NCBI GenBank assembly: GCA_001824435.1
Contig: MHXH01000016.1
Coordinates: 14,970-78,969, forward strand
Length of the DNA stretch: 64,000 nucleotides
Source of the DNA: Parcubacteria group bacterium RIFCSPLOWO2_01_FULL_48_18
Lineage (GTDB): Bacteria; Patescibacteriota; Minisyncoccia; UBA6257; WO2-01-48-18
Direction of reading: 5' to 3'
Shown: piece after piece, positions 797 through 53,641 of the stretch
How the letters are laid out: each line of letters starts with the position of its first letter
Position numbering within the stretch: the stretch's first letter is position 1
The notes under the pieces: generated by a model
The model's input: the letters and a program-made list of their open reading frames with translations, nothing else
Databases searched by the model: none
What the model was told of the DNA's origin: nothing
Program-made: the position numbers and the translations under genes

Positions 797-1531
797 TTAA
801 AAAAATGAAAATCCTTTCAGGAATTTATCAAAGAATATTGATTCTTCACTATTGTCTTTTATTGGTTCGAAGAAATTGAAATGAACAACATAGAAAAAAT
901 CTTTCGTATCTATCCAAAATTGGTGAGGACAAGTATTGGGATCAACTTTCATTCCATACCATTGGGACGCAGAACATTCCACCGCTCCTTTCCATGTCCC
1001 AGTGTTCATTTGAATTTCTTTCCCAGTAAGACAGTAAACATATTCTTCGTATTGGGATTCACTGGACAAATTTCTACTTCCTGCGGCAACCGGACATTGC
1101 GAATTGGAAGCGAACATTTTTTCATAAGAAGAATCTATCGAAGAAGATATTGGTTTCTTAATAATAGTAATACCACCCACGATAGCTATGACCTCTCCAT
1201 TTTTAATTTCTTGCAATTGAACGAAAGGAAAATGAGTATCCTCGTCTACCTTCCAATAAGCCGGATATTGAAACTCAAGCCCATATTTTTCACTACGATA
1301 CACCTTCCAGTCATCGGTCGATGGCGAGGAGCTCGTCGTTTTATTGGAAGGTTGCGTAGCAGTTTGAGTGGATGTCGGAGTTTTTACTTCATTGGATACA
1401 GGCGCTGGTTGTTGAGTTTGAATTTCCGTAGGAGCCACGGATTTCTTGGAAAAAATGAAATACCCACCGATTGCAACAATAGCAATGACAACGAAAATCA
1501 AAACAATATTTACAAATCCCTTTTGACTCAT
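797..1531 (-). CDS. Hypothetical membrane-anchored exported protein. The likely start is at MSQKGF (1531); the ORF track extends it to 1603.
   Basis: An N-terminal hydrophobic helix (IVLIFVVIAIVAIGGYFIF) is followed by a Thr/Ser/Pro-rich linker and a Cys-containing globular part. Confidence 0.5.
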   Translation of the reverse strand: MSQKGFVNIVLIFVVIAIVAIGGYFIFSKKSVAPTEIQTQQPAPVSNEVKTPTSTQTATQPSNKTTSSSPSTDDWKVYRSEKYGLEFQYPAYWKVDEDTHFPFVQLQEIKNGEVIAIVGGITIIKKPISSSIDSSYEKMFASNSQCPVAAGSRNLSSESQYEEYVYCLTGKEIQMNTGTWKGAVECSASQWYGMKVDPNTCPHQFWIDTKDFFYVVHFNFFEPIKDNSEESIFFDKFLKGFSFF

Positions 1532-1654
1532 ATGATTAAAAATTTTTCTTCCCCCAAAATGCGAAACCGCCAATTCGTTTTTACCCCCAAAATTGAATAC
1601 CAATTAGTCGCCGAGCGAAGCGAGGCGAACCTTTTAAACTTGCAAATTCCTTTC

Positions 1655-1966
1655 TGGTGCCGCGGGAGGGAATCGAACCCCCTACGCCAGCCTCTTCCTG
1701 GCTGATTTTGGACTATATCATCTCCGTTCTTCGCGCAAGAGTGCGGAGTCGGGCGCTTGTGCAAGATTATTGTTGGGACTCACTTGCTAGTCTCTACACC
1801 TTCTAAGAAATCTCCACCGGCTGGCGGAGCCCCCCTTAGCTTGGCTCGGGGTTGTTCTGACGGCATGTCGGAGTGTTCCCCGAATTCACCCGATTTTACA
1901 GTCTGCATTACTGCAGAAAGCCCCAAAGAATTTCAGGGCTGCGCTCTACCAATGAGCTACCGCGGC
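1655..1966 (-). tRNA. tRNA-Phe (anticodon GAA) interrupted by a ~237-nt intron in the anticodon loop. The intron is probably group I.
   Basis: The 5' exon (1966..1930, minus strand) reads GCCGCGGUAGCUCAUUGGUAGAGCGCAGCCCUGAAAU: acceptor stem, U8, D-arm GCUC/GAGC and anticodon stem CAGCC. The 3' exon (1692..1655) reads GGCUGGCGUAGGGGGUUCGAUUCCCUCCCGCGGCACCA: anticodon stem partner GGCUG, T-arm GGGGG-UUCGAUU-CCCUC, acceptor CCGCGGC complementary to GCCGCGG, discriminator A and encoded CCA. The intervening ~237 nt contain a GACUA...GAGUC P7-like pair. Confidence 0.8.
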
Positions 1967-4615: not shown

Positions 4616-4651
4616 TCTACACTATCATACACTGTAGTATGATAGTGTAGA
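4616..4651. promoter_or_regulatory. Perfect 15-bp inverted repeat (TCTACACTATCATAC-N6-GTATGATAGTGTAGA) in the divergent plsC / T4SS-locus intergenic region
   Basis: Seen directly in the sequence. It has an AT-rich stem and is flanked by an A-tract on the 5' side, so it reads as a hairpin followed by T6 on the minus strand. Confidence 0.4.
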
Positions 4652-4733
4652 AAGGGGGTCGGGGTCAGGACGGATTTGGTTATTCACAGTATGCGTCATG
4701 CGTTAGCATACATGCGCTGCTATAATAGAAGCA

Positions 4734-5528
4734 ATGGAAGCCGTTTCTTTTCCGAGAAAACTGGCAGCCGCACTTATACTGATTGCCGGCATTGCGGGAT
4801 TGTATGCGAGCGTTGCTCCGAATACGTTTTGGGCATTATTCTCCAAAGACAAAGAGGGCGCGGGCAGAGACGCCATTACAGCATACCTCGCGCCATCAGC
4901 GCAAGAATCGCAAAAACCGCTCTATGTCGAACCATACGGAGACGCCGCGGCTGCTGCGTCCGACAACCTTACCGGCCTGCTCGCTGACACACTGTCAGAT
5001 CAGCTCATGGCCGACGTCGGCGCCGAGAGCTTCCTGGGAGAGGGCAGCGCAGACATCTCGGAAACGCTCCCGGACTATTCCACTCTTCTAGAAAACGAAC
5101 TCGCCAAGGTCGATCCCTCCCGCATTTTCAAGGCAGGAGCATTTGACATCGTTGTCATCAACGACAATAGCCGCGAAGCAAAAAAGAAATATGACGAACG
5201 CGTAACGCCGGTCGTGGAAAAAATCTTCGCGGGCCTCAATGACAATGCATCGTCATTTTCGGAAAAAGACCTCGCCCAAGTCGTCGATAACCACAACGCG
5301 GCCATCACCATCGCTCTCGCAACGCCGGTGCCGAACGACTGGGCAGAATACCACAGAAAGGGAGTTGCCTATCTGATGGAACGAAGGGAGATTTTTCAGG
5401 CGCTTAGCGCCGTACACGACGATCCGGTAAAATCGCTTGCCGCGCTTCAATACCTCAACGCGTTCGAAGTCGAATTTACGCAATATCTAAAAGAGTATTC
5501 GGAAATCATAAAGGGCGCGACACAATGA
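4734..5528 (+). CDS. Hypothetical membrane-anchored protein, first gene of the T4SS-like locus
   Basis: An N-terminal hydrophobic segment is followed by an acidic, Ala/Asp-rich soluble region. Confidence 0.45.
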   Translation: MEAVSFPRKLAAALILIAGIAGLYASVAPNTFWALFSKDKEGAGRDAITAYLAPSAQESQKPLYVEPYGDAAAAASDNLTGLLADTLSDQLMADVGAESFLGEGSADISETLPDYSTLLENELAKVDPSRIFKAGAFDIVVINDNSREAKKKYDERVTPVVEKIFAGLNDNASSFSEKDLAQVVDNHNAAITIALATPVPNDWAEYHRKGVAYLMERREIFQALSAVHDDPVKSLAALQYLNAFEVEFTQYLKEYSEIIKGATQ

Positions 5529-9980: not shown

Positions 9981-10030
9981 ACCCTAGACCTTAGGCTTTA
10001 GGCTCTAGGCTTTAGGTTTTAGGTTTTAGA
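9978..10030. repeat. Tandem heptamer array (TTAGGCT/TTAGGTT ...), left flank of four-helix-bundle cassette 1
   Basis: Direct reading: tagaccctagaccttaggctttaggctctaggctttaggttttaggttttag. Confidence 0.7.
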
Positions 10031-10086
10031 CGTTGCGTTAGACGCGGAAAAATTAGGATGTAATTTCTAAACCTCTAAAAGCCGAC

Positions 10087-10442
10087 ATGCACACTTATAA
10101 AGACCTTATCGTCTGGCAGAAGTCTATAGAACTGGTTACAAAAATATACCTCTTGACAGAAGGCTTTCCAAAAGAAGAAATCTATGGCCTAACGTCGCAA
10201 ATGAGACGCGCTGCCGTATCCATAGCTTCGAATATTGCTGAAGGCAGGCTACGAGGACATCCAAAAGAATTTAAGCAGTTTTTATTAACTGCTTATGTGG
10301 CTCTGGCGGCGAACTAGAAACACAGATTGAAATCGCCAAACGCCTACCCACCACAAGACGCCTCGATTACACAAGAACAGACGCCCTGCTTAGCGAGGTG
10401 ATGAAAATGTTAAATGCGATGATCTCAAGGACTAGCGCCTAA
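10087..10442 (+). pseudogene. Four-helix-bundle protein (23S rRNA intervening-sequence protein / Avd-like family), frameshifted
   Basis: The N-terminal 76 aa (YKDLIVWQKSIELV...GLTSQMRRAAVSIASNIAEG) match the family. The conserved C-terminal part (GSGGELETQIEIAKRL...MLNAMISRT) continues in another frame after a 2-nt indel near 10297-10300. Confidence 0.65.
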
Positions 10443-10474
10443 CGCCTAGCGCCTAACGGCCTAGCGCCTAAACC
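10429..10474. repeat. Tandem heptamer array (CGCCTAA/CGCCTAG), right flank of cassette 1, inverted relative to the left flank
   Basis: Direct reading. Its reverse complement (TTAGGCG...) mirrors the TTAGGCT array at 9978..10030. Confidence 0.65.
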
Positions 10475-11122
10475 ATGCAGTTTCAAATCCCCCAATTCAT
10501 CGAGACGGAAGATAAAATTGTCGGGCCGTTTACGCTCAAGCAGTTTTTATATTTTGCCGGCGCCGGAGGCATCAGTTTCGTCCTTTACTTCACGCTCAAT
10601 TTTTTCTTCTGGTTTATGATCACATTTTTCCTCGCGCTCGTCGCCGTCGGATTGGCATTTGTCAAGATCAACGGCCTGCCGCTCATCAAAATCCTCATGG
10701 CGGCAGTTGGTTTCATGATGAAGCCGCGGCTCTACGTCTGGCAGAGGCGGCTGGAAGGAAAAACCGTCGAGGTTCCCGAAGACGAGGACGAAGAAACGCC
10801 GGAAAAAGAAAAACCAGCCGAAGACGGGCATCGCCCGGCAATAAGCGGCAGCTTGAGTTCATTGGCCGAAAAGTTGAAAACCGGAAGCTCGTACATTCCA
10901 AAAAGAGAACAACCCATGCCGAGCCGGTTTTCGACGTATACCGCGGCCCCGCCAGCCGCCACCGCTCCGGCCCCAAAAACTGACAACCCACACCAACAGG
11001 CTCCGCAGCCAATCGAAAACCCGACAACACAACCTACGCCGCAACAAAACAACCAGTATGTTGAACTAGAACTGCCCAGCGGAGAAATACAAAAAGCGAA
11101 ACGAGTGGACTATGGTGAATAG
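10475..11122 (+). CDS. PrgI/VirB3-like small membrane protein with a Pro/Gln-rich C-terminal tail
   Basis: The N-terminus (QIPQFIETEDKIVGPFTLKQFLYFAG) plus two TM helices resembles the PrgI (VirB3-like) family. It lies immediately upstream of the VirB4-type ATPase. Confidence 0.5.
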   Translation: MQFQIPQFIETEDKIVGPFTLKQFLYFAGAGGISFVLYFTLNFFFWFMITFFLALVAVGLAFVKINGLPLIKILMAAVGFMMKPRLYVWQRRLEGKTVEVPEDEDEETPEKEKPAEDGHRPAISGSLSSLAEKLKTGSSYIPKREQPMPSRFSTYTAAPPAATAPAPKTDNPHQQAPQPIENPTTQPTPQQNNQYVELELPSGEIQKAKRVDYGE

Positions 11123-11150
11123 ACTAAAGTTGAAAGTTGTAAGTTGAAAG
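11123..11150. repeat. AAGTTGAAAG-type tandem repeat, left terminal repeat of four-helix-bundle cassette 2
   Basis: aaagttgaaagttgtaagttgaaagg. It is the reverse complement of the array at 11591..11623. Confidence 0.65.
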
Positions 11151-11222
11151 GGGTGGATTACAACGAGTAGATTCAAGTTATACGAAGGAGCTAGTTAACC
11201 ATTGATATGATAAAATAAGTAT

Positions 11223-11606
11223 ATGCCGGTAGAAGACCTTGAGGTGTACAAGAAACTTTGCGAACTCGCGCTAGAAATCCATGGAGCTACATTGTCCTTC
11301 CCGCGATTTGAATTGTACGAACTGGGTTCTCAACTAAGACGCTCCTCGAACTCCGCGCCCGCAAACCTCGCTGAAGGCTTCGGTAATAAACACACTAACA
11401 TCTACTTGGAAAGTATCAGCCGGGCGCAAGGAGAAATAAGAGAAACGATACGTCATCTGCGAATGGCCCATCAGAAACAATATATTGTTAAAGAAAAATT
11501 CGAATATTTTATACATGCGTGCCGCGAAAGCTCAAAGATGCTCTACGGACTTGAACGGGGATTAGTACACTCGAAGGCTTTTAAAAATACTACCTTACAA
11601 CTTTAA
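11223..11606 (+). CDS. Four-helix-bundle protein (23S rRNA intervening-sequence protein / Avd-like family), intact and divergent
   Basis: DLEVYKK...FP..ELYELGSQLRRSSNSAPANLAEGFG...GEIRET..HL matches the family pattern. Confidence 0.6.
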   Translation: MPVEDLEVYKKLCELALEIHGATLSFPRFELYELGSQLRRSSNSAPANLAEGFGNKHTNIYLESISRAQGEIRETIRHLRMAHQKQYIVKEKFEYFIHACRESSKMLYGLERGLVHSKAFKNTTLQL

Positions 11607-11623
11607 TCTTTCAACTTTAATCT
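11591..11623. repeat. CAACTTTAATC tandem repeat, right terminal inverted repeat of cassette 2
   Basis: ccttacaactttaatctttcaactttaatct. Its reverse complement shares AAAGTTGAAAG and AAGTTGTAAG with the left repeat. Confidence 0.65.
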
Positions 11624-12280
11624 ATGGTCAACGCGAAACCGGCTACTCAACAAATAGTCGAAATAAAAGAAATTAAGGACGATATCGTATATCTCAAGGG
11701 CGGCGGACTGCGCGCCGTGATTATGGTTTCCGGCGTCAATTTCGACCTGAAATCCGAAGAAGAACAGAATATCCTTCTCTACGGCTATCAAAGTTTCCTT
11801 AATTCGCTTGATTACTCGTTCCAAATCGTTGTTCACTCACGGAAGTTAAACATCGACGGCTACTTGGAAATGCTCCGGCAACGCGAGTTGCAGGAGCAAA
11901 ACGAACTCCTCAAGGCGCAAGTCGCCGAATACGTGGAATTCGTAAGCTCGTTCGTACAGATGAACGCCATCATGTCAAAAACATTTTACGCAGTCGTCCC
12001 GTACGACGTCATCCAGGTAGGGTCAAAAACCATTGCCGGCCTCGGAAGCCTTATGGAAGGAGGATCAAGGGCGCCGGTTGCAACAACAAAGGAAGAAGAC
12101 GAAACCGTAAAAATAACCCAGCTCGAACAGCGAGTCGAACAAGTTCTGGGAGGCATCCGCAGAATGGGACTCCGGGCGGTTCGCCTCAATGCGCAGGAGC
12201 TCATTGAGCTCTACTACAATTTGTATAACCCGGAGGAAAAAGAACGGACGCTCGCAATTGCAAAAGATATGACTACATAG
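11624..12280 (+). CDS. VirB4/TraE-type conjugal-transfer ATPase, N-terminal domain fragment (218 aa)
   Basis: LKGGGLRAVIMVSGVNFDLKSEEEQ is typical of the N-terminus of Gram-positive-type VirB4 proteins. It ends at a TAG immediately before a 93-bp inverted-repeat element. It is in the same frame as 12374..14188. Confidence 0.6.
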   Translation: MVNAKPATQQIVEIKEIKDDIVYLKGGGLRAVIMVSGVNFDLKSEEEQNILLYGYQSFLNSLDYSFQIVVHSRKLNIDGYLEMLRQRELQEQNELLKAQVAEYVEFVSSFVQMNAIMSKTFYAVVPYDVIQVGSKTIAGLGSLMEGGSRAPVATTKEEDETVKITQLEQRVEQVLGGIRRMGLRAVRLNAQELIELYYNLYNPEEKERTLAIAKDMTT

Positions 12281-12373
12281 TCGTATACAGCTTGTAGCTG
12301 GTAGCCGGTAGCTTCTTAATCGTGGTTTAACTTATTACCAAAAAGCTACAAGCTAAAAAGCTACAAGCTAATC
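12281..12373. mobile_element. 93-bp (31-codon, in-frame) inverted-repeat element splitting the VirB4 gene
   Basis: The left end has cagcttgtagctggtagccggtagc and the right end has aaagctacaagctaaaaagctacaagct, forming AGCTTGTAGCT / AGCTACAAGCT inverted repeats. It carries three in-frame stop codons. Confidence 0.55.
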
Positions 12374-14188
12374 ATGGGTTTCATCAATCCGTTTGGCGCG
12401 TCGTCGCCAAAACAAAAAATCGCTGTTCCTACCGCATACGAGATGGGCGGTAAGGACATCAAGGACATAATTTCTCCGCCGGCGCTTGAAATCGAGTCGA
12501 ACTTCCTCAAGCTCGGCAAGAAATTCGTCAAGAGCTACTTCGTATTCACCTATCCCCGCTTTCTTGTCAGCGGCTGGTTTTCTCCGATCATCAACATGGA
12601 CAAGGCGATGGATATCGCCATTTTCGTCCATCCAATCGAAACCGCAACAGCGCTGAAAAAGCTCCGCAGAAAAACCGCTCAAGTCCAAGCGCAGCTCGCC
12701 GAGCGGGAAGAAAAAGGATACGTATCCGACCCGGCGCTCGAAACCGCCTACCAGGACATCGAATCGCTCCGCCAATCGCTCCAGCAATCAACGGAACGCC
12801 TCTTCAATGCAGGGCTGTACTTCACCCTCTACGGAGACACGCTTGAAGAAATAAACGCCGTGGAGTCAAAGATCGTTTCAATCCTCGAGGGCCAGATCGT
12901 GTACACCAAGCCGTGTCTCTTCCAACAGTATGAAGGATTCGTATCAACGCTACCGCTCGGACACGACAAAATACTCATACACACCCCGCTTAATTCCGGA
13001 CCCATTTCTTCGTTCTTCCCGTTCGTTTCTTCTGACCTTACGTCAGACAAGGGTATTCTCTACGGCATCAACCGCCACAACAACAGCCTCGTCATATTTG
13101 ACAGGTTTTCAATGGAAAACGCGAACCAGGTCCTGTTCGCCAAGTCCGGTTCCGGGAAATCCTATACCACTAAGCTCGAAATCCTGCGCTATCTTATGCT
13201 CGGCACCGACATCCTCATCATCGATCCGGAAAACGAGTATCAGAATCTTTCGGACACCGTAGGCGGCGCGTTCTTCAAAATATCCCTGACATCCGATTAC
13301 CACATCAACCCATTCGACATCCCGAAAATTCCGAAAGGAGAAGACCCGGGAGACGTCTTGCGTTCGCATATCGTCAATCTCTCCGGCCTCCTCAAACTAA
13401 TGCTCGGTGGCGTAACGCCCGAGGAAGACGCCGTGTTAGATCGGGCTATCACCGAAACCTACGCCTCACGCGACATCACGCCTGACGCCGACTTTTCGGG
13501 GAAAACGCCGCCGCTCATGCAAGATCTCCAAACCGTGCTTGAAAACATGGAAGGCGCAAAAGACGTTGCCGCAAAATTGGAAAAATATACCAAAGGAACG
13601 TACAGCACGTTCATCAACCAACCGACGAACATCGACGTCAAAAACCGGCTTATCGTATTCAGCTTGCGCGACCTGGAGGACCAGTTGCGGCCGATGGCGA
13701 TGTACATCGTGCTCAATTTCATCTGGGGACTTATCCGCGCAGAGCTTAAACGCCGCCTCCTCATTATCGACGAGGCGTGGTGGATGATGAAAAGCGAAGA
13801 CAGCGCGTCATTTCTCTTCGGCCTGGCCAAGCGCGCGCGGAAATATTACATGGGGGTAAGCACCATCACGCAAGACGTGGAGGACTTTCTAAAGTCACCG
13901 TACGGAAAACCGATCATCACCAACTCGGCAATTCAGATCCTCCTCAAACAGGCGCCTTCTTCTATCGACGCGGTGGCCAAAACATTTAACCTCACCGAAG
14001 CAGAAAAACAACTATTGCTTGAAAGCGGAGTGGGGGAAGGATTGTTTTTTGCCGGACTCAAGCACGCAGCCATCAAGGTCATCGCTTCCTACACCGAAGA
14101 TCAAATCGTCACCACCAACCCGCAACAAATCATGGAGCAACAAAAGCTGTCGGAGCAAATAGAAAAAATGAAGGAAAAAACAAACTAA
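12374..14188 (+). CDS. VirB4/TraE-type conjugal-transfer ATPase, C-terminal ATPase portion (604 aa)
   Basis: Walker A FAKSGSGKSYT and Walker B LLIIDEAWWMM. The YPRFLVSGWFSPII segment is typical of VirB4 just after the N-terminal domain. Confidence 0.75.
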   Translation: MGFINPFGASSPKQKIAVPTAYEMGGKDIKDIISPPALEIESNFLKLGKKFVKSYFVFTYPRFLVSGWFSPIINMDKAMDIAIFVHPIETATALKKLRRKTAQVQAQLAEREEKGYVSDPALETAYQDIESLRQSLQQSTERLFNAGLYFTLYGDTLEEINAVESKIVSILEGQIVYTKPCLFQQYEGFVSTLPLGHDKILIHTPLNSGPISSFFPFVSSDLTSDKGILYGINRHNNSLVIFDRFSMENANQVLFAKSGSGKSYTTKLEILRYLMLGTDILIIDPENEYQNLSDTVGGAFFKISLTSDYHINPFDIPKIPKGEDPGDVLRSHIVNLSGLLKLMLGGVTPEEDAVLDRAITETYASRDITPDADFSGKTPPLMQDLQTVLENMEGAKDVAAKLEKYTKGTYSTFINQPTNIDVKNRLIVFSLRDLEDQLRPMAMYIVLNFIWGLIRAELKRRLLIIDEAWWMMKSEDSASFLFGLAKRARKYYMGVSTITQDVEDFLKSPYGKPIITNSAIQILLKQAPSSIDAVAKTFNLTEAEKQLLLESGVGEGLFFAGLKHAAIKVIASYTEDQIVTTNPQQIMEQQKLSEQIEKMKEKTN

Positions 14189-17042: not shown

Positions 17043-17126
17043 GTTGCAAGTCGACAGCGGAAAGTTAAAAACCGGACGCAGGAACCGGTTTTTTAATCTT
17101 TCAGCTCACAACTTTAATCTTTAATC
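17033..17126. mobile_element. Cargo-less copy of the AAGTTG inverted-repeat element with an embedded bidirectional terminator hairpin
   Basis: The left end (agttgtaagttgcaag...ggaaagtt) and right end (cacaactttaatctttaatc) match the terminal repeats of cassette 2. The centre is AAAAACCGG-N9-CCGGTTTTTT (17066..17096). Confidence 0.55.
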
Positions 17127-17132
17127 CGATCG

Positions 17133-24586: not shown

Positions 24587-24667
24587 TGAAATAGAGTGTT
24601 TAGCGCTTAGCGTTCAGCGTTTATCCGCCAGCCGGCGGACTAATCGCCATACTCCATACCCTAAACC
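24587..24667. repeat. Intergenic repeat element: heptamer arrays (TAGCGCT..., CCCTAAA x2) flanking the 16-bp palindrome TCCGCCAGCCGGCGGA (24624..24639)
   Basis: Direct reading. Confidence 0.6.
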
Positions 24668-29272: not shown

Positions 29273-29379
29273 GTTCTTGGAATTTGGAATCTTGAATTTG
29301 GAGCTCGGAAGCCCTAACCCTTGAACCCCGAATTCAGATTCTAATTCTAAATTCTAAATTCTAAATTCCAGATTCTTTT
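29273..29379. repeat. Heptamer tandem arrays (GAATTTG..., ATTCTAA x4)
   Basis: ggaatttggaatcttgaatttggag ... attctaattctaaattctaaattctaaattcc. Confidence 0.6.
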
Positions 29380-29847: not shown

Positions 29848-29944
29848 CCTAGCTTTTTAGCTTCTTAGCCTTTTAGGGAAGCTTGTCGATATGGCGTTCT
29901 CAACAGCTCTAATAAGCTACAAGCTAGTAAGCCACCAGCCTTAC
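29848..29944. repeat. Tandem array (AGCTTTTTAG/CTTCTTAG/CCTTTTAGG) plus AGCTACAAGCTA motif shared with the VirB4-splitting element
   Basis: Direct reading. Confidence 0.55.
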
Positions 29945-38516: not shown

Positions 38517-39938
38517 ATGGTTATAAAAGAATTCGTTAGAGCGATTGATCAAATCGCCCAAGAAAAAGGAATACCGAAAGAGCGCGTGGTCGAGACCATA
38601 GAGGCTGCGCTTGCGGCGGCGTATAAGAAAGAATACGGAAAGCGCGGAGAGGTTATCCGCGCCCATCTTGATTTTGGAAATAACGCCATCCAGTTCAGAC
38701 AGATAAAGATAGCGGTAGATAAAGACTCGGTGCGCATTATTGAGGAAGGTGAAAGGGCGCAGGCGCCGAAATTGATGCAATCAATCGAGGAAGTTTCCGA
38801 GCAGGTTGAAGCTCGCGCCAGCGAACAGGAAGAAGGAGAGAAAAAACTGAGATACAATCCGGACCGCCATATTTTTATTGAAGAAGCGCGGGCGATCAAG
38901 CCGGATGCCCAGCTTGAAGAGGAAATCGAATTTCCTCTTGAAACTCACGAGGATTTTGGCAGAATCGCGGCGCAGACGGCCAAACAGGTGGTCATTCAAA
39001 AGCTGCGCGAAGCAGAGCGCCTGTCGCTTTTTGAAGAATACAGAAACAAAGAGGGTCAGCTCATCAGCGGCATTGTTCAGAATTTCGAGCGGGGAAATGT
39101 GTATATCAATCTTGGTAAGACGACCGGAGTGATGTTCGGGAATGAAACGATTCCGGTGGAACGATATAGTCCGGGCCAGAGGCTTAGGTTTTACGTATTG
39201 GGCGTTCAGGAGGAAGGGAGGCTTCCGGGCGTGATTTTATCCCGAGCTCATCCGAAATTCGTGGAAAAATTGTTTGAATTGGAAGTGCCGGAAATCGCAG
39301 AAGGGGTGGTTGAGGCGAAAGCGATTGCGCGGGAGCCGGGCAACCGGACCAAAATCGCTGTCGCGTCCAAGGATGAGCACATAGATCCCGTGGGTTCGTG
39401 CGTGGGCCAGCGAGGCAGCCGCGTCATGGCGGTGATTAATGAGCTTGGCCAGGAAAAGATTGATATTATTCCGTGGTCTGACGATCCGGCGAAATTCGTG
39501 GCCAATGCTCTTTCTCCGGCGAAGGTGAAACGTGTGGAAATTCGCCCGCGCCGCGAGGCGCTGGTGTATGTCGGAGAAGACCAGTTGAGTCTTGCTATCG
39601 GAAGGGGCGGGCAGAATGTGCGGCTCGCGGCCAAGTTGACCGGATGGAAGATCGACGTTCGCTCACAGGCCGAGCCGGAAAAGGTTCAAGAAGGAGGAAT
39701 TGCGCAGAGCGAAGAGGAGAAGGCAACGGAAATTGAAAAAGAGAAGAGCGAGAAGGAAGAATTCGACTTGGGCTCGCTTCCCGGGGTAGGACCAAAAGGA
39801 GTAGGGGCGCTCCGGTCCGCAGGCCTTGGATCCCTAGAAAAGCTACAGGCAGCCACCAAAGAGGAATTGCTTGTAGTAGAGGGGGTCGGAGAAAAGACAG
39901 CGCAAAAAATCCTCGATCATCTACGACAGCTAAAATAA
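38517..39938 (+). CDS. nusA: Transcription termination/antitermination factor NusA with a C-terminal acidic/HhH extension
   Basis: S1 and KH domains (GSCVGQRGSRV) and a C-terminal HhH region. Confidence 0.85.
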   Translation: MVIKEFVRAIDQIAQEKGIPKERVVETIEAALAAAYKKEYGKRGEVIRAHLDFGNNAIQFRQIKIAVDKDSVRIIEEGERAQAPKLMQSIEEVSEQVEARASEQEEGEKKLRYNPDRHIFIEEARAIKPDAQLEEEIEFPLETHEDFGRIAAQTAKQVVIQKLREAERLSLFEEYRNKEGQLISGIVQNFERGNVYINLGKTTGVMFGNETIPVERYSPGQRLRFYVLGVQEEGRLPGVILSRAHPKFVEKLFELEVPEIAEGVVEAKAIAREPGNRTKIAVASKDEHIDPVGSCVGQRGSRVMAVINELGQEKIDIIPWSDDPAKFVANALSPAKVKRVEIRPRREALVYVGEDQLSLAIGRGGQNVRLAAKLTGWKIDVRSQAEPEKVQEGGIAQSEEEKATEIEKEKSEKEEFDLGSLPGVGPKGVGALRSAGLGSLEKLQAATKEELLVVEGVGEKTAQKILDHLRQLK

Positions 39939-51765: not shown

Positions 51766-51800
51766 AATATGGAATTTGAAATTTGAAGACTATTTGAAAT

Positions 51801-51837
51801 AAAAAAAGTGGCGCTCGCAAACAGCGTGTAGCGCCAC
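51801..51837. terminator. Bidirectional terminator hairpin GTGGCGC-N16-GCGCCAC with an A-tract on the 5' side
   Basis: Direct reading. The GAAATTTGA tandem repeats at 51766..51800 lie just before it. Confidence 0.55.
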
Positions 51838-53225: not shown

Positions 53226-53353
53226 TAATCTGATGAGGTCGCCAGCGGTAATTCTATACTTGTACTACGAAACAGCATTGCGGATCTCCGATTTTTCGAG
53301 TATCTCAATAATATTCTAACATTCTCAAGAATGTCAGAATATTGTGGCAGGAC

Positions 53354-53641
53354 ATGACGGACAAAGTCAAAAATCAAAAACAAATGGAACGGCACTTTAA
53401 GGGCGTAGCAAATCACCGCCGCATTGAGATTCTTATGGTTATCGCCGAACACGAAGGAGTTACGCTGGACAACCTATCGCGCATCGTTTCGTGCAATTTT
53501 AAAACGCTTTCCGAACATACGCGCCGGCTCGTCCAAGCCGGTTTGATAAATAAGAAATACCACGGACGGTTTGTCCGCCATACACTCTCGCCATATGGCA
53601 GAATGTTCTATAAGTTTATCGTGACGCTCCGACATTCTTGA
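53354..53641 (+). CDS. ArsR-family HTH transcriptional regulator
   Basis: A winged-helix core (LDNLSRIVSCNFKTLSEHTRRLVQAGLI). Imperfect palindromes ACATTCT..AGAATGT lie at 53310..53343 and 53631..53659. Confidence 0.6.
   Translation: MTDKVKNQKQMERHFKGVANHRRIEILMVIAEHEGVTLDNLSRIVSCNFKTLSEHTRRLVQAGLINKKYHGRFVRHTLSPYGRMFYKFIVTLRHS

Follow-up and report, generated by a model that had tools for sequence, protein, structure and literature searches.

A two-gene form of the VirB4 ATPase, in which a small protein called TrsD accompanies VirB4, is already known and is the norm in Patescibacteria. The 2,272 TrsD homologues recorded there, 1,664 of them associated with virB4, include an essential homologue in Ca. 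S. epibionticum ML1, and outside Patescibacteria TrsD occurs in monoderm conjugation systems of the pGO1 subclass (PMC12102498, 2025). We analysed a locus of this kind in a 64,000-nucleotide (nt) stretch of DNA, hereafter the window, from Parcubacteria group bacterium RIFCSPLOWO2_01_FULL_48_18. In the window a trsD-like open reading frame (ORF1) and the virB4 body (ORF2) are separated by a non-coding spacer predicted to fold into an imperfect hairpin. The layout resembles that of the pGO1-type pair TrsD and TrsE (VirB4), a small homologue of the VirB4 N-terminal domain directly upstream of a shortened VirB4 in a PrgI/VirB3-VirB6-pilin operon. PrgI, T4SS_pilin and a TrbL_3-like gene provide the type IV secretion system (T4SS) operon context of ORF1 and ORF2. 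The spacers between the two genes of the Patescibacteria pairs are not discussed in the published account (PMC12102498).

The closest described counterparts of the spacer come from elsewhere. The intervening sequence (IVS) in helix 45 of the Coxiella burnetii 23S rRNA has a 28-bp stem of terminal inverted repeats with a decaying S23p ORF in its loop and tandem heptameric repeats of variable number in its 5' arm, and RNase III cleaves within the stem (PMC4990558). In candidate phyla radiation (CPR) bacteria, 23S_rRNA_IVP ORFs have been described within the rRNA genes, as have short insertions, other than introns, at IVS sites (PMC11270868). Heptanucleotide repeats form the commonest long class among the simple sequence repeats (SSRs) of many bacteria and accumulate immediately upstream of Beggiatoaceae start codons (PMC4679880). 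The TAACTGA arrays of marine Beggiatoaceae, cyanobacteria and Bacteroidetes lie almost only in intergenic DNA and typically end one to a few nt before a start that lacks a Shine-Dalgarno (SD) sequence; as these words contain stop triplets, three copies close all frames (PMC4679880).

Our overall reading, to which we assign a probability of roughly 0.7, is that the locus holds an ancestral and normal two-gene TrsD plus VirB4 and that the spacer is an ORF-less, IVS-like hairpin within the operon mRNA. We read the spacer as occupying a pre-existing gap and not as the cause of the trsD/virB4 split, and as IVS-like because the same architecture encloses PF05635 and PDDEXK_3 genes and the same word type inserts in 23S rRNA.

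The trsD-like gene and virB4

ORF2 scored 377.9 bits against the NCBIfam model conju_CD1110 (NF045971), above the curated cut-off of 325. The match covered profile positions 183-728 of 752, the N-terminal ~180 positions of the profile being absent from ORF2. Pfam matches were to P-loop_TraG (PF19044, 1.3e-30), AAA_10 and DUF87, and Protein Data Bank matches were to the VirB4 C-terminal domain (4ag5, 3.2e-45) and to TrwK residues 290-741. By these matches ORF2 is identified as a VirB4 ATPase of the monoderm CD1110 family. ORF1 matched positions 1-108 of the CD1110 VirB4 profile and positions 18-183 of VirB4_CagE, and was homologous in both sequence and fold to the first ~180-200 residues of full-length VirB4. 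It had no match in our Pfam search, PF26593 being present only in precomputed annotations. From these alignments we identify ORF1 as a free-standing VirB4 N-terminal domain of the TrsD type that supplies the part absent from ORF2. The two products presumably assemble non-covalently into a VirB4 ATPase.

Homologues of ORF1 stood alone almost without exception. The 120 best matches among 5.8 billion proteins (49-100% identity) were all stand-alone proteins of 185-311 amino acids (aa), typically ~215 aa. A second search, of a 1.84-billion-protein library, gave 2,109 matches at E <= 1e-3, and of the best 150 cluster representatives 149 were short and one was a 797-aa fusion. The aligned homologues all stopped a few residues past an invariant ELFYNLYNP motif. 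We also assembled 80 related loci from GTDB species genomes, 79 of which contained both parts. The stand-alone gene lay directly upstream of virB4 and co-oriented with it, and 75 of the 79 loci were split at the same point. An uninterrupted VirB4, which the initial annotation had proposed to look for in close relatives, was found among these loci only in three genuine fusions (L006, L015 and L036). By VirB4 similarity the fused genes (L006 together with L036, and L015) fall within groups of split relatives, a pattern that suggests secondary fusion. A fourth apparent fusion, L013, was rejected, as an N-filled scaffold gap exactly at the trsD-virB4 junction (~4640-4770) had produced a false fused ORF; at this junction palindromic spacers probably break assemblies or mislead them, and the hairpins would account for recurrent assembly gaps of which the N-run of L013 is an example.

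The initial annotation had left a choice between a natural two-polypeptide VirB4 with a repeat-bearing spacer and a miniature inverted-repeat transposable element (MITE)-like insertion that had split or inactivated an intact VirB4 of ~822 aa. The observations behind the insertion were largely accurate. The two ORFs share a frame (both starts are congruent to 2 modulo 3), lie exactly 93 nt (31 codons) apart and sum to 822 aa, and an in-frame read-through meets three stops, the TAG of ORF1 and two further ones. Inverted repeats are present in the spacer but are not strictly terminal, being offset ~8-9 nt from the stop and 4 nt from the ATG. Moreover, uninterrupted homologues of ~790 aa do exist (L006, L015, L036 and P0123). 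The insertion is nevertheless very improbable, since the same break point recurs in relatives whose spacers are unrelated, whose gaps are 1 nt or whose stop and start codons overlap, in all three frames, and since the stand-alone form accounts for 149 of the 150 cluster representatives. A two-ORF arrangement in relatives that have no repeat-bearing spacer is the observation that the initial annotation had named as contradicting the insertion. The fused relatives (786-790 aa) align over both ORFs, with ...LEIAKE running straight into ...GKTVTDIIAPPAME, and this alignment to full-length homologues showed no conserved core residues lost at the ORF1/ORF2 junction. ORF2 has its own N-terminal extension of ~22 additional residues relative to the fused homologues, and this extension is conserved. 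The ATG at 12374 is its start, as had been annotated, because homology with the ORF2 of relatives sets in around residue 10-14 and no alternative in-frame start exists. The two-polypeptide alternative is the one that matches the published TrsD plus VirB4 organisation of Patescibacteria (PMC12102498).

The relative frames of the 75 split loci were distributed as 21 in the same frame and 22 and 32 in the other two. As about one split locus in three is likewise in frame, the shared frame is attributable to chance, and the exact 31-codon geometry is, judged from these counts, a coincidence that carries no meaning. The same counts bear on a second way of obtaining a single fused VirB4, by ribosome bypass, read-through or RNA splicing across the 93 nt. 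An in-frame, strongly structured spacer of 31 codons would be compatible with such an event. Set against it are the three in-frame stops, the lack of an intron or other Rfam match in the spacer, the two thirds of relatives that are out of frame or overlapping, and the standing of stand-alone TrsD as a recognised protein (PMC12102498), which together make the proposal hardly credible.

The spacer hairpin and similar elements in the window

Ten contigs of the same organism that encode the identical ORF1, assembled independently (ENA, JGI and Logan), all had this same spacer, which is therefore real and not an assembly artefact. Its inverted repeat is formed by AGCTTGTAGCT (12289-12299), which pairs with AGCTACAAGCT at 12344-12354 and at 12359-12369, the latter sequence being present twice because the 15-nt unit AAAAAGCTACAAGCT is tandemly duplicated. 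The 11-mer of the spacer repeat occurs four times in the window against 0.53 expected, and none of 100 shuffles reached four. The predicted RNA fold has an energy of -33.6 kcal/mol, compared with -17.4 +/- 2.8 for shuffled sequences (z = -5.8), and none of 200 shuffles was as good. The stem, ~22 bp in three segments, is a terminal stem of the kind found in IVSs; it starts ~8-9 nt past the trsD stop and ends 2-4 nt before the virB4 ATG. The spacer has no coding capacity, as stops occur in every frame on both strands, and an Rfam search of it returned no family.

A stable stem-loop directly after a stop codon could be an intrinsic transcription terminator between two transcription units. However, no T-run follows the stem, the sequence there being AATCATGG, and a scan of the spacer for promoters and terminators found no promoter- or terminator-like site; no promoter-like site lies before ORF2. 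The stem is long, AU-rich and interrupted by internal loops, in contrast to the short GC-rich stem of a terminator. We give this explanation almost no credence.

At least seven heptamer-armed hairpins lie in the window, the spacer being element C, and complementary heptamer arrays are present at elements A, B, C, D, E and F (Table 1). Two of them, which fill the two gaps of the operon upstream of the spacer, enclose genes for 23S-rRNA-IVS-proteins (S23p, PF05635). Element B, between the prgI stop and the trsD ATG, encloses an intact gene (11223-11606) that scored 94.8 bits against PF05635 and 87 bits against TIGR02436. Element A finishes 3 nt before the prgI ATG and encloses a frameshifted gene (10087-10439), of which 10087-10317 matches profile positions 1-66 of 106 and the second half lies in another frame. 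The same 76-aa call was made at 10087-10439 in all contigs of the species, and the element A gene is therefore a fixed pseudogene rather than a sequencing error. The ORF-less hairpins D, E and F, together with the weaker G, sit between housekeeping genes. Element F fills the gap between two minus-strand genes. G, the weakest of the set, lies between convergent genes where the T4SS gene block ends on its 3' side. Hairpins occupy ~4 of 13 gaps in the T4SS operon versus 3 of 35 elsewhere in the window, counts too low to support a claim of enrichment.

Table 1. Coordinates in the window of the gene pair, the spacer with its arms and the remaining hairpins (TRF, Tandem Repeats Finder; MFE, minimum free energy in kcal/mol)
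Feature	Position	Strand	Description	Evidence
prgI / virB3-like gene	10475-11122	+	same T4SS operon	Pfam PF12666 PrgI, 43.8 bits
ORF1	11624-12280	+	trsD-like gene, stand-alone VirB4 N-terminal-domain homologue, 218 aa	ATG to TAG
Spacer (element C)	12281-12373	+	non-coding, 93 nt, imperfect hairpin across 12289-12369	
Left arm of spacer	12289-12316	+	four tandem heptamers, AGCTTGT, AGCTGGT, AGCCGGT, AGCTTCT	TRF period 7, 3.6 copies, 12289-12313; repeat search
Right arm of spacer	12340-12371	+	AAAAAGCTACAAGCT twice (7/8-nt words AAGCTAC / AAGCTAA)	TRF period 15 (100% match), period 7; repeat search
ORF2	12374-14188	+	virB4 (trsE-like) ATPase body, 604 aa	start ATG
Element A	9981-10474	+	arms TTAGGCT x5.6 (9984-10031) and CTAACGC x5.6 (10432-10471)	TRF; duplex -60.7 kcal/mol, z -6.5
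Element B	11119-11625	+	33-nt inverted repeat (11119-11151 / 11593-11625), 85% complementary, words AAAGTTG	repeat search, TRF; duplex z -4.1
Element D	24587-24667	-	ORF-less hairpin, arms GTTTAGC x3.7 / ACCCTAA, between M16 peptidase and AI-2E transporter genes	TRF; MFE -32.2, z -3.5
Element E	29273-29379	-	ORF-less hairpin, arms TTGGAAT x3.7 / ATTCTAA x5.7	TRF; MFE -33.1, z -5.5
Element F	29848-29944	-	ORF-less hairpin, AGCT word family of the spacer (TAGCTTGTAGCTTATTAG ... AAGAAGCTAAAAAGCTAG)	MFE -30.5, z -3.9 (- strand)
Element G	17043-17132		hairpin, CTTTAAT words, terminator-like core	TRF; fold z -2.9

The search for further copies of the spacer, as proposed in the initial annotation, covered the window: only element F shares its words, at ~55% aligned identity, and the other hairpins differ. 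K-mer matches at 39838-39935 were considered as a third AGCT-type copy and rejected, as they lie inside a long ORF and form no heptamer array; two further candidate hairpins, at 53340-53473 and 51766-51830, were rejected since they folded no better than shuffled sequences. The initial idea of the spacer as a distinct element holds to the extent that heptamer-armed hairpins form a recurrent class which includes it, but not as regards causing the split. MITEs and repetitive extragenic palindromic (REP)-type elements are likewise short, non-coding, hairpin-forming, multi-copy and intergenic. In contrast to these, the hairpins of the window share no termini except those of C and F, have heptamer-repetitive arms and come with no matching transposase, and the spacer is not flanked by a direct repeat or target-site duplication, which is a further argument against a MITE at this site.

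Elsewhere in the window, positions 1687-1944 on the minus strand gave an Rfam match to the group I intron model RF00028 (51.8 bits versus a gathering score of 50). Two overlapping ORFs near this match, 797-1603 (-) and 881-1705 (+), could encode a homing endonuclease.

The trsD-virB4 junction in relatives

The gap between trsD and virB4 in the 75 split loci had a median of 14 nt. The genes overlapped in 14 loci; 33 loci had gaps of 1-30 nt, another 21 had gaps of 31-150 nt and 7 had gaps of >150 nt, the longest being 448 nt. Of the 20 gaps of 45-150 nt, 12 folded with z < -3 (down to -11.8); their hairpin sequences were unrelated and lineage-specific, and many were visibly heptameric. In six of the seven gaps of >150 nt, word-repeat arms adjoining the stop and the ATG flanked a small gene. 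This cargo was PF05635 in L007, L024, L034 and L074, and PF13366 (PDDEXK_3, GxxExxY family) in L016 and L054. Across the 80 T4SS loci all 26 PF05635-like or PDDEXK_3-like genes were on the operon strand. Close relatives differ in whether the junction is occupied: the gap is 445 nt, with cargo, in L016 versus 82 nt in L026 (90% VirB4 identity) and 2 nt in L012 (85%), and it is 111 nt in L039 versus 1 nt in L072 (85% VirB4 identity).

These comparisons bear on the possibility that the hairpin is a dedicated regulatory structure, a device for translational coupling or stoichiometry by which the virB4 start stays masked as long as trsD is being translated. The stem extends from ~8 nt past the trsD stop to 4 nt before the virB4 ATG in a genome with almost no SD sites, and the strong hairpins of 12 of the 20 relatives with gaps of 45-150 nt would also be consistent with this role. 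However, 47 of the 75 relatives have gaps of <=30 nt or overlaps and hence no hairpin, and as most relatives thus lack a hairpin at the junction, a dedicated coupling role is less likely. The hairpin sequences are moreover unrelated between lineages, occupancy flips among close relatives, and the same kind of hairpin is found between unrelated housekeeping genes and in rRNA. A ribosome halted at the TAG would extend no further than the base of the stem. We therefore regard a dedicated regulatory hairpin as unlikely and retain the reading of the spacer as an IVS-like occupant of the gap.

At the trsD-virB4 junction, L011 (4640-4759) and L035 (4643-4762), which are not mutual nearest relatives, each carry a 120-nt element. 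The two elements have in common identical termini, ATCCCGTTAGAGA ... TCTCTAACGGG, and a sub-terminal hairpin with compensatory changes (GGAAGCG/CGCTTCC versus GGAAACG/TGTTTCC), but have unrelated interiors; closer relatives of these two loci have junction gaps of -4 to 10 nt. The L037 spacer (4637-4718) is a near-perfect 25-bp palindrome, GTCATTCCCGCGGAGGCGGGAATC...GATTCCCGCTTCCGCGGGAATGAC, of -50.3 kcal/mol (z -11). It is not heptameric, and therefore more than one kind of palindromic element uses the trsD-virB4 gap.

Heptamer hairpins beyond the locus and the likeness to rRNA IVSs

A metagenome scan for TAGCTTGTAGCTTWTTAG gave at least 119 contigs, from which 80 loci were retrieved; none of the 80 matched the window (blastn, E <= 1e-20). 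Most had the form (TAGCTTN)n, short loop, (NAAGCTA)n, often reaching from stop codon to start codon. A nearby partner arm was found at 29 of the 69 evaluable sites, with a median span of 78 nt, and a PF05635 ORF followed some of the hairpins (for example, in L113 and L120). A CPR 23S rRNA gene in L161 and L170 contains the hairpin as an insertion of 97 nt, at positions ~229-231 of the Rfam large subunit (LSU) model (3350-3446 in L161). A second heptamer hairpin in the same genes, of 106 nt, lies at LSU model positions ~161-168 (3182-3287 in L161). The L161 23S rRNA gene, whose insertions are identical in L170, thus has at least two heptamer-word hairpins within the first 250 positions of the model; it is 3,956 nt long versus 2,925 nt for the model, and must carry further insertions downstream. 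The (TAGCTTN)n arrays also abut tRNA genes (L092 2089-2200, L117 950-1060), and hence flank non-coding RNA genes as well as ORFs and rRNA.

The hairpins resemble the 23S IVSs in their long terminal stem, the heptamers of the arms, the optional PF05635 ORF in the loop, the decay of that ORF, the existence of both ORF-containing and ORF-less forms of ~90-110 nt, and the dependence on host transcription. At this locus the heptamer arms are in the spacer itself and the S23p genes are in the sister elements A and B and at the junctions of four relatives. The hairpins described here differ from the 23S IVSs in position, as they fill gaps between protein genes in mRNA operons and directly adjoin the stop and start codons, and in cargo, which can also be PDDEXK_3. 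The spacer is between protein genes and not in a 23S or 16S rRNA helix, and the window gave neither rRNA nor tRNA matches. In the literature searched we found nothing relevant on IVS-protein genes flanked by inverted repeats outside rRNA, and no description of the heptamer-hairpin class outside rRNA.

The arrays might instead be functionless SSRs generated by slippage, with the hairpin as a by-product, a neutral intergenic filler like the TAACTGA or STRR (short tandemly repeated repetitive) arrays of other bacteria. The accumulation of abundant heptanucleotide SSRs before Beggiatoaceae start codons (PMC4679880), the variable heptamer copy number, the 15-nt tandem duplication in the spacer and the many metagenome arrays with no obvious partner arm fit this view. 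It does not account well for arm complementarity far beyond chance, in the spacer and to a still greater degree in relatives, for arms that bracket specific cargo genes always co-oriented with the operon, or for the insertion of the same architecture into rRNA helices. The TAACTGA arrays are direct repeats without self-structure, in contrast to the complementary arrays, the gene enclosure and the words varying between sites that are found here. We hold slippage alone to be improbable as a full explanation, but on the origin of the arrays it overlaps the IVS-like reading that we prefer.

Several observations count against that reading of the locus. The words differ from hairpin to hairpin in the window, with no common terminal sequence except in C and F, and the hairpins are therefore not copies of one transposing sequence. 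About 40 of the 69 evaluable metagenome sites have a heptamer array and no obvious nearby AGCTA-type partner arm, so that the hairpin is not obligatory for the AGCT word family. No RNase III gene was found among the ten mid-size ORFs of the window that were scanned. On the protein side, the structure model of ORF1 is of moderate confidence only (mean pLDDT 66), and ORF1 scored 46.2 bits (E 4.6e-12, positions 15-140 of 201) against the TrsD/TraD model NF041427, whose curated cut-off of 200 is far higher; its relationship to the staphylococcal protein is therefore distant. By these scores ORF1 is homologous to TrsD but outside the curated subfamily, and TrsD-like in the broader sense of PMC12102498.

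The spacer would be transcribed within the operon mRNA, and its long imperfect stem would most likely be cut by RNase III or otherwise processed, as in rRNA IVSs. Such cleavage would separate the trsD and virB4 segments of the mRNA and leave virB4 with a very short leader. An SD-like motif was found in 3 of the 46 genes (long ORFs) of the window, and a TATAAT-like box lies 6-9 nt before the ATG of several genes, for example those at 4734, 5591, 29945 (-) and 33449 (-). This scarcity of SD motifs together with the position of the boxes suggests that leaderless mRNAs are common in this genome.

Because the two-gene VirB4 is the published norm in Patescibacteria, the trsD-virB4 locus should not be annotated as a pseudogene or a disrupted ATPase. 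More tentatively, rRNA IVSs may be only one setting of a wider class of CPR hairpin cassettes, selfish or domesticated, having heptamer inverted arms and PF05635, PDDEXK_3 or no cargo, that insert or are generated flush between the stop and start codons of highly transcribed operons, co-oriented with them, and are processed out like IVSs; we put this forward as a possibility that we do not yet favour. Were it true, the trsD-virB4 junction, which among close relatives can be filled, empty or filled by something else, would lend itself naturally to studying IVS movement, a question open since about 1990. The spacer links three subjects that are usually kept apart, intergenic heptamer repeats, the small IVS-protein and PDDEXK_3 genes of CPR operons and true rRNA IVSs, through one architecture. 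If that link holds, it would offer a route to study the origin and mobility of IVSs and the expression of internal cistrons in SD-poor, leaderless-prone CPR genomes.

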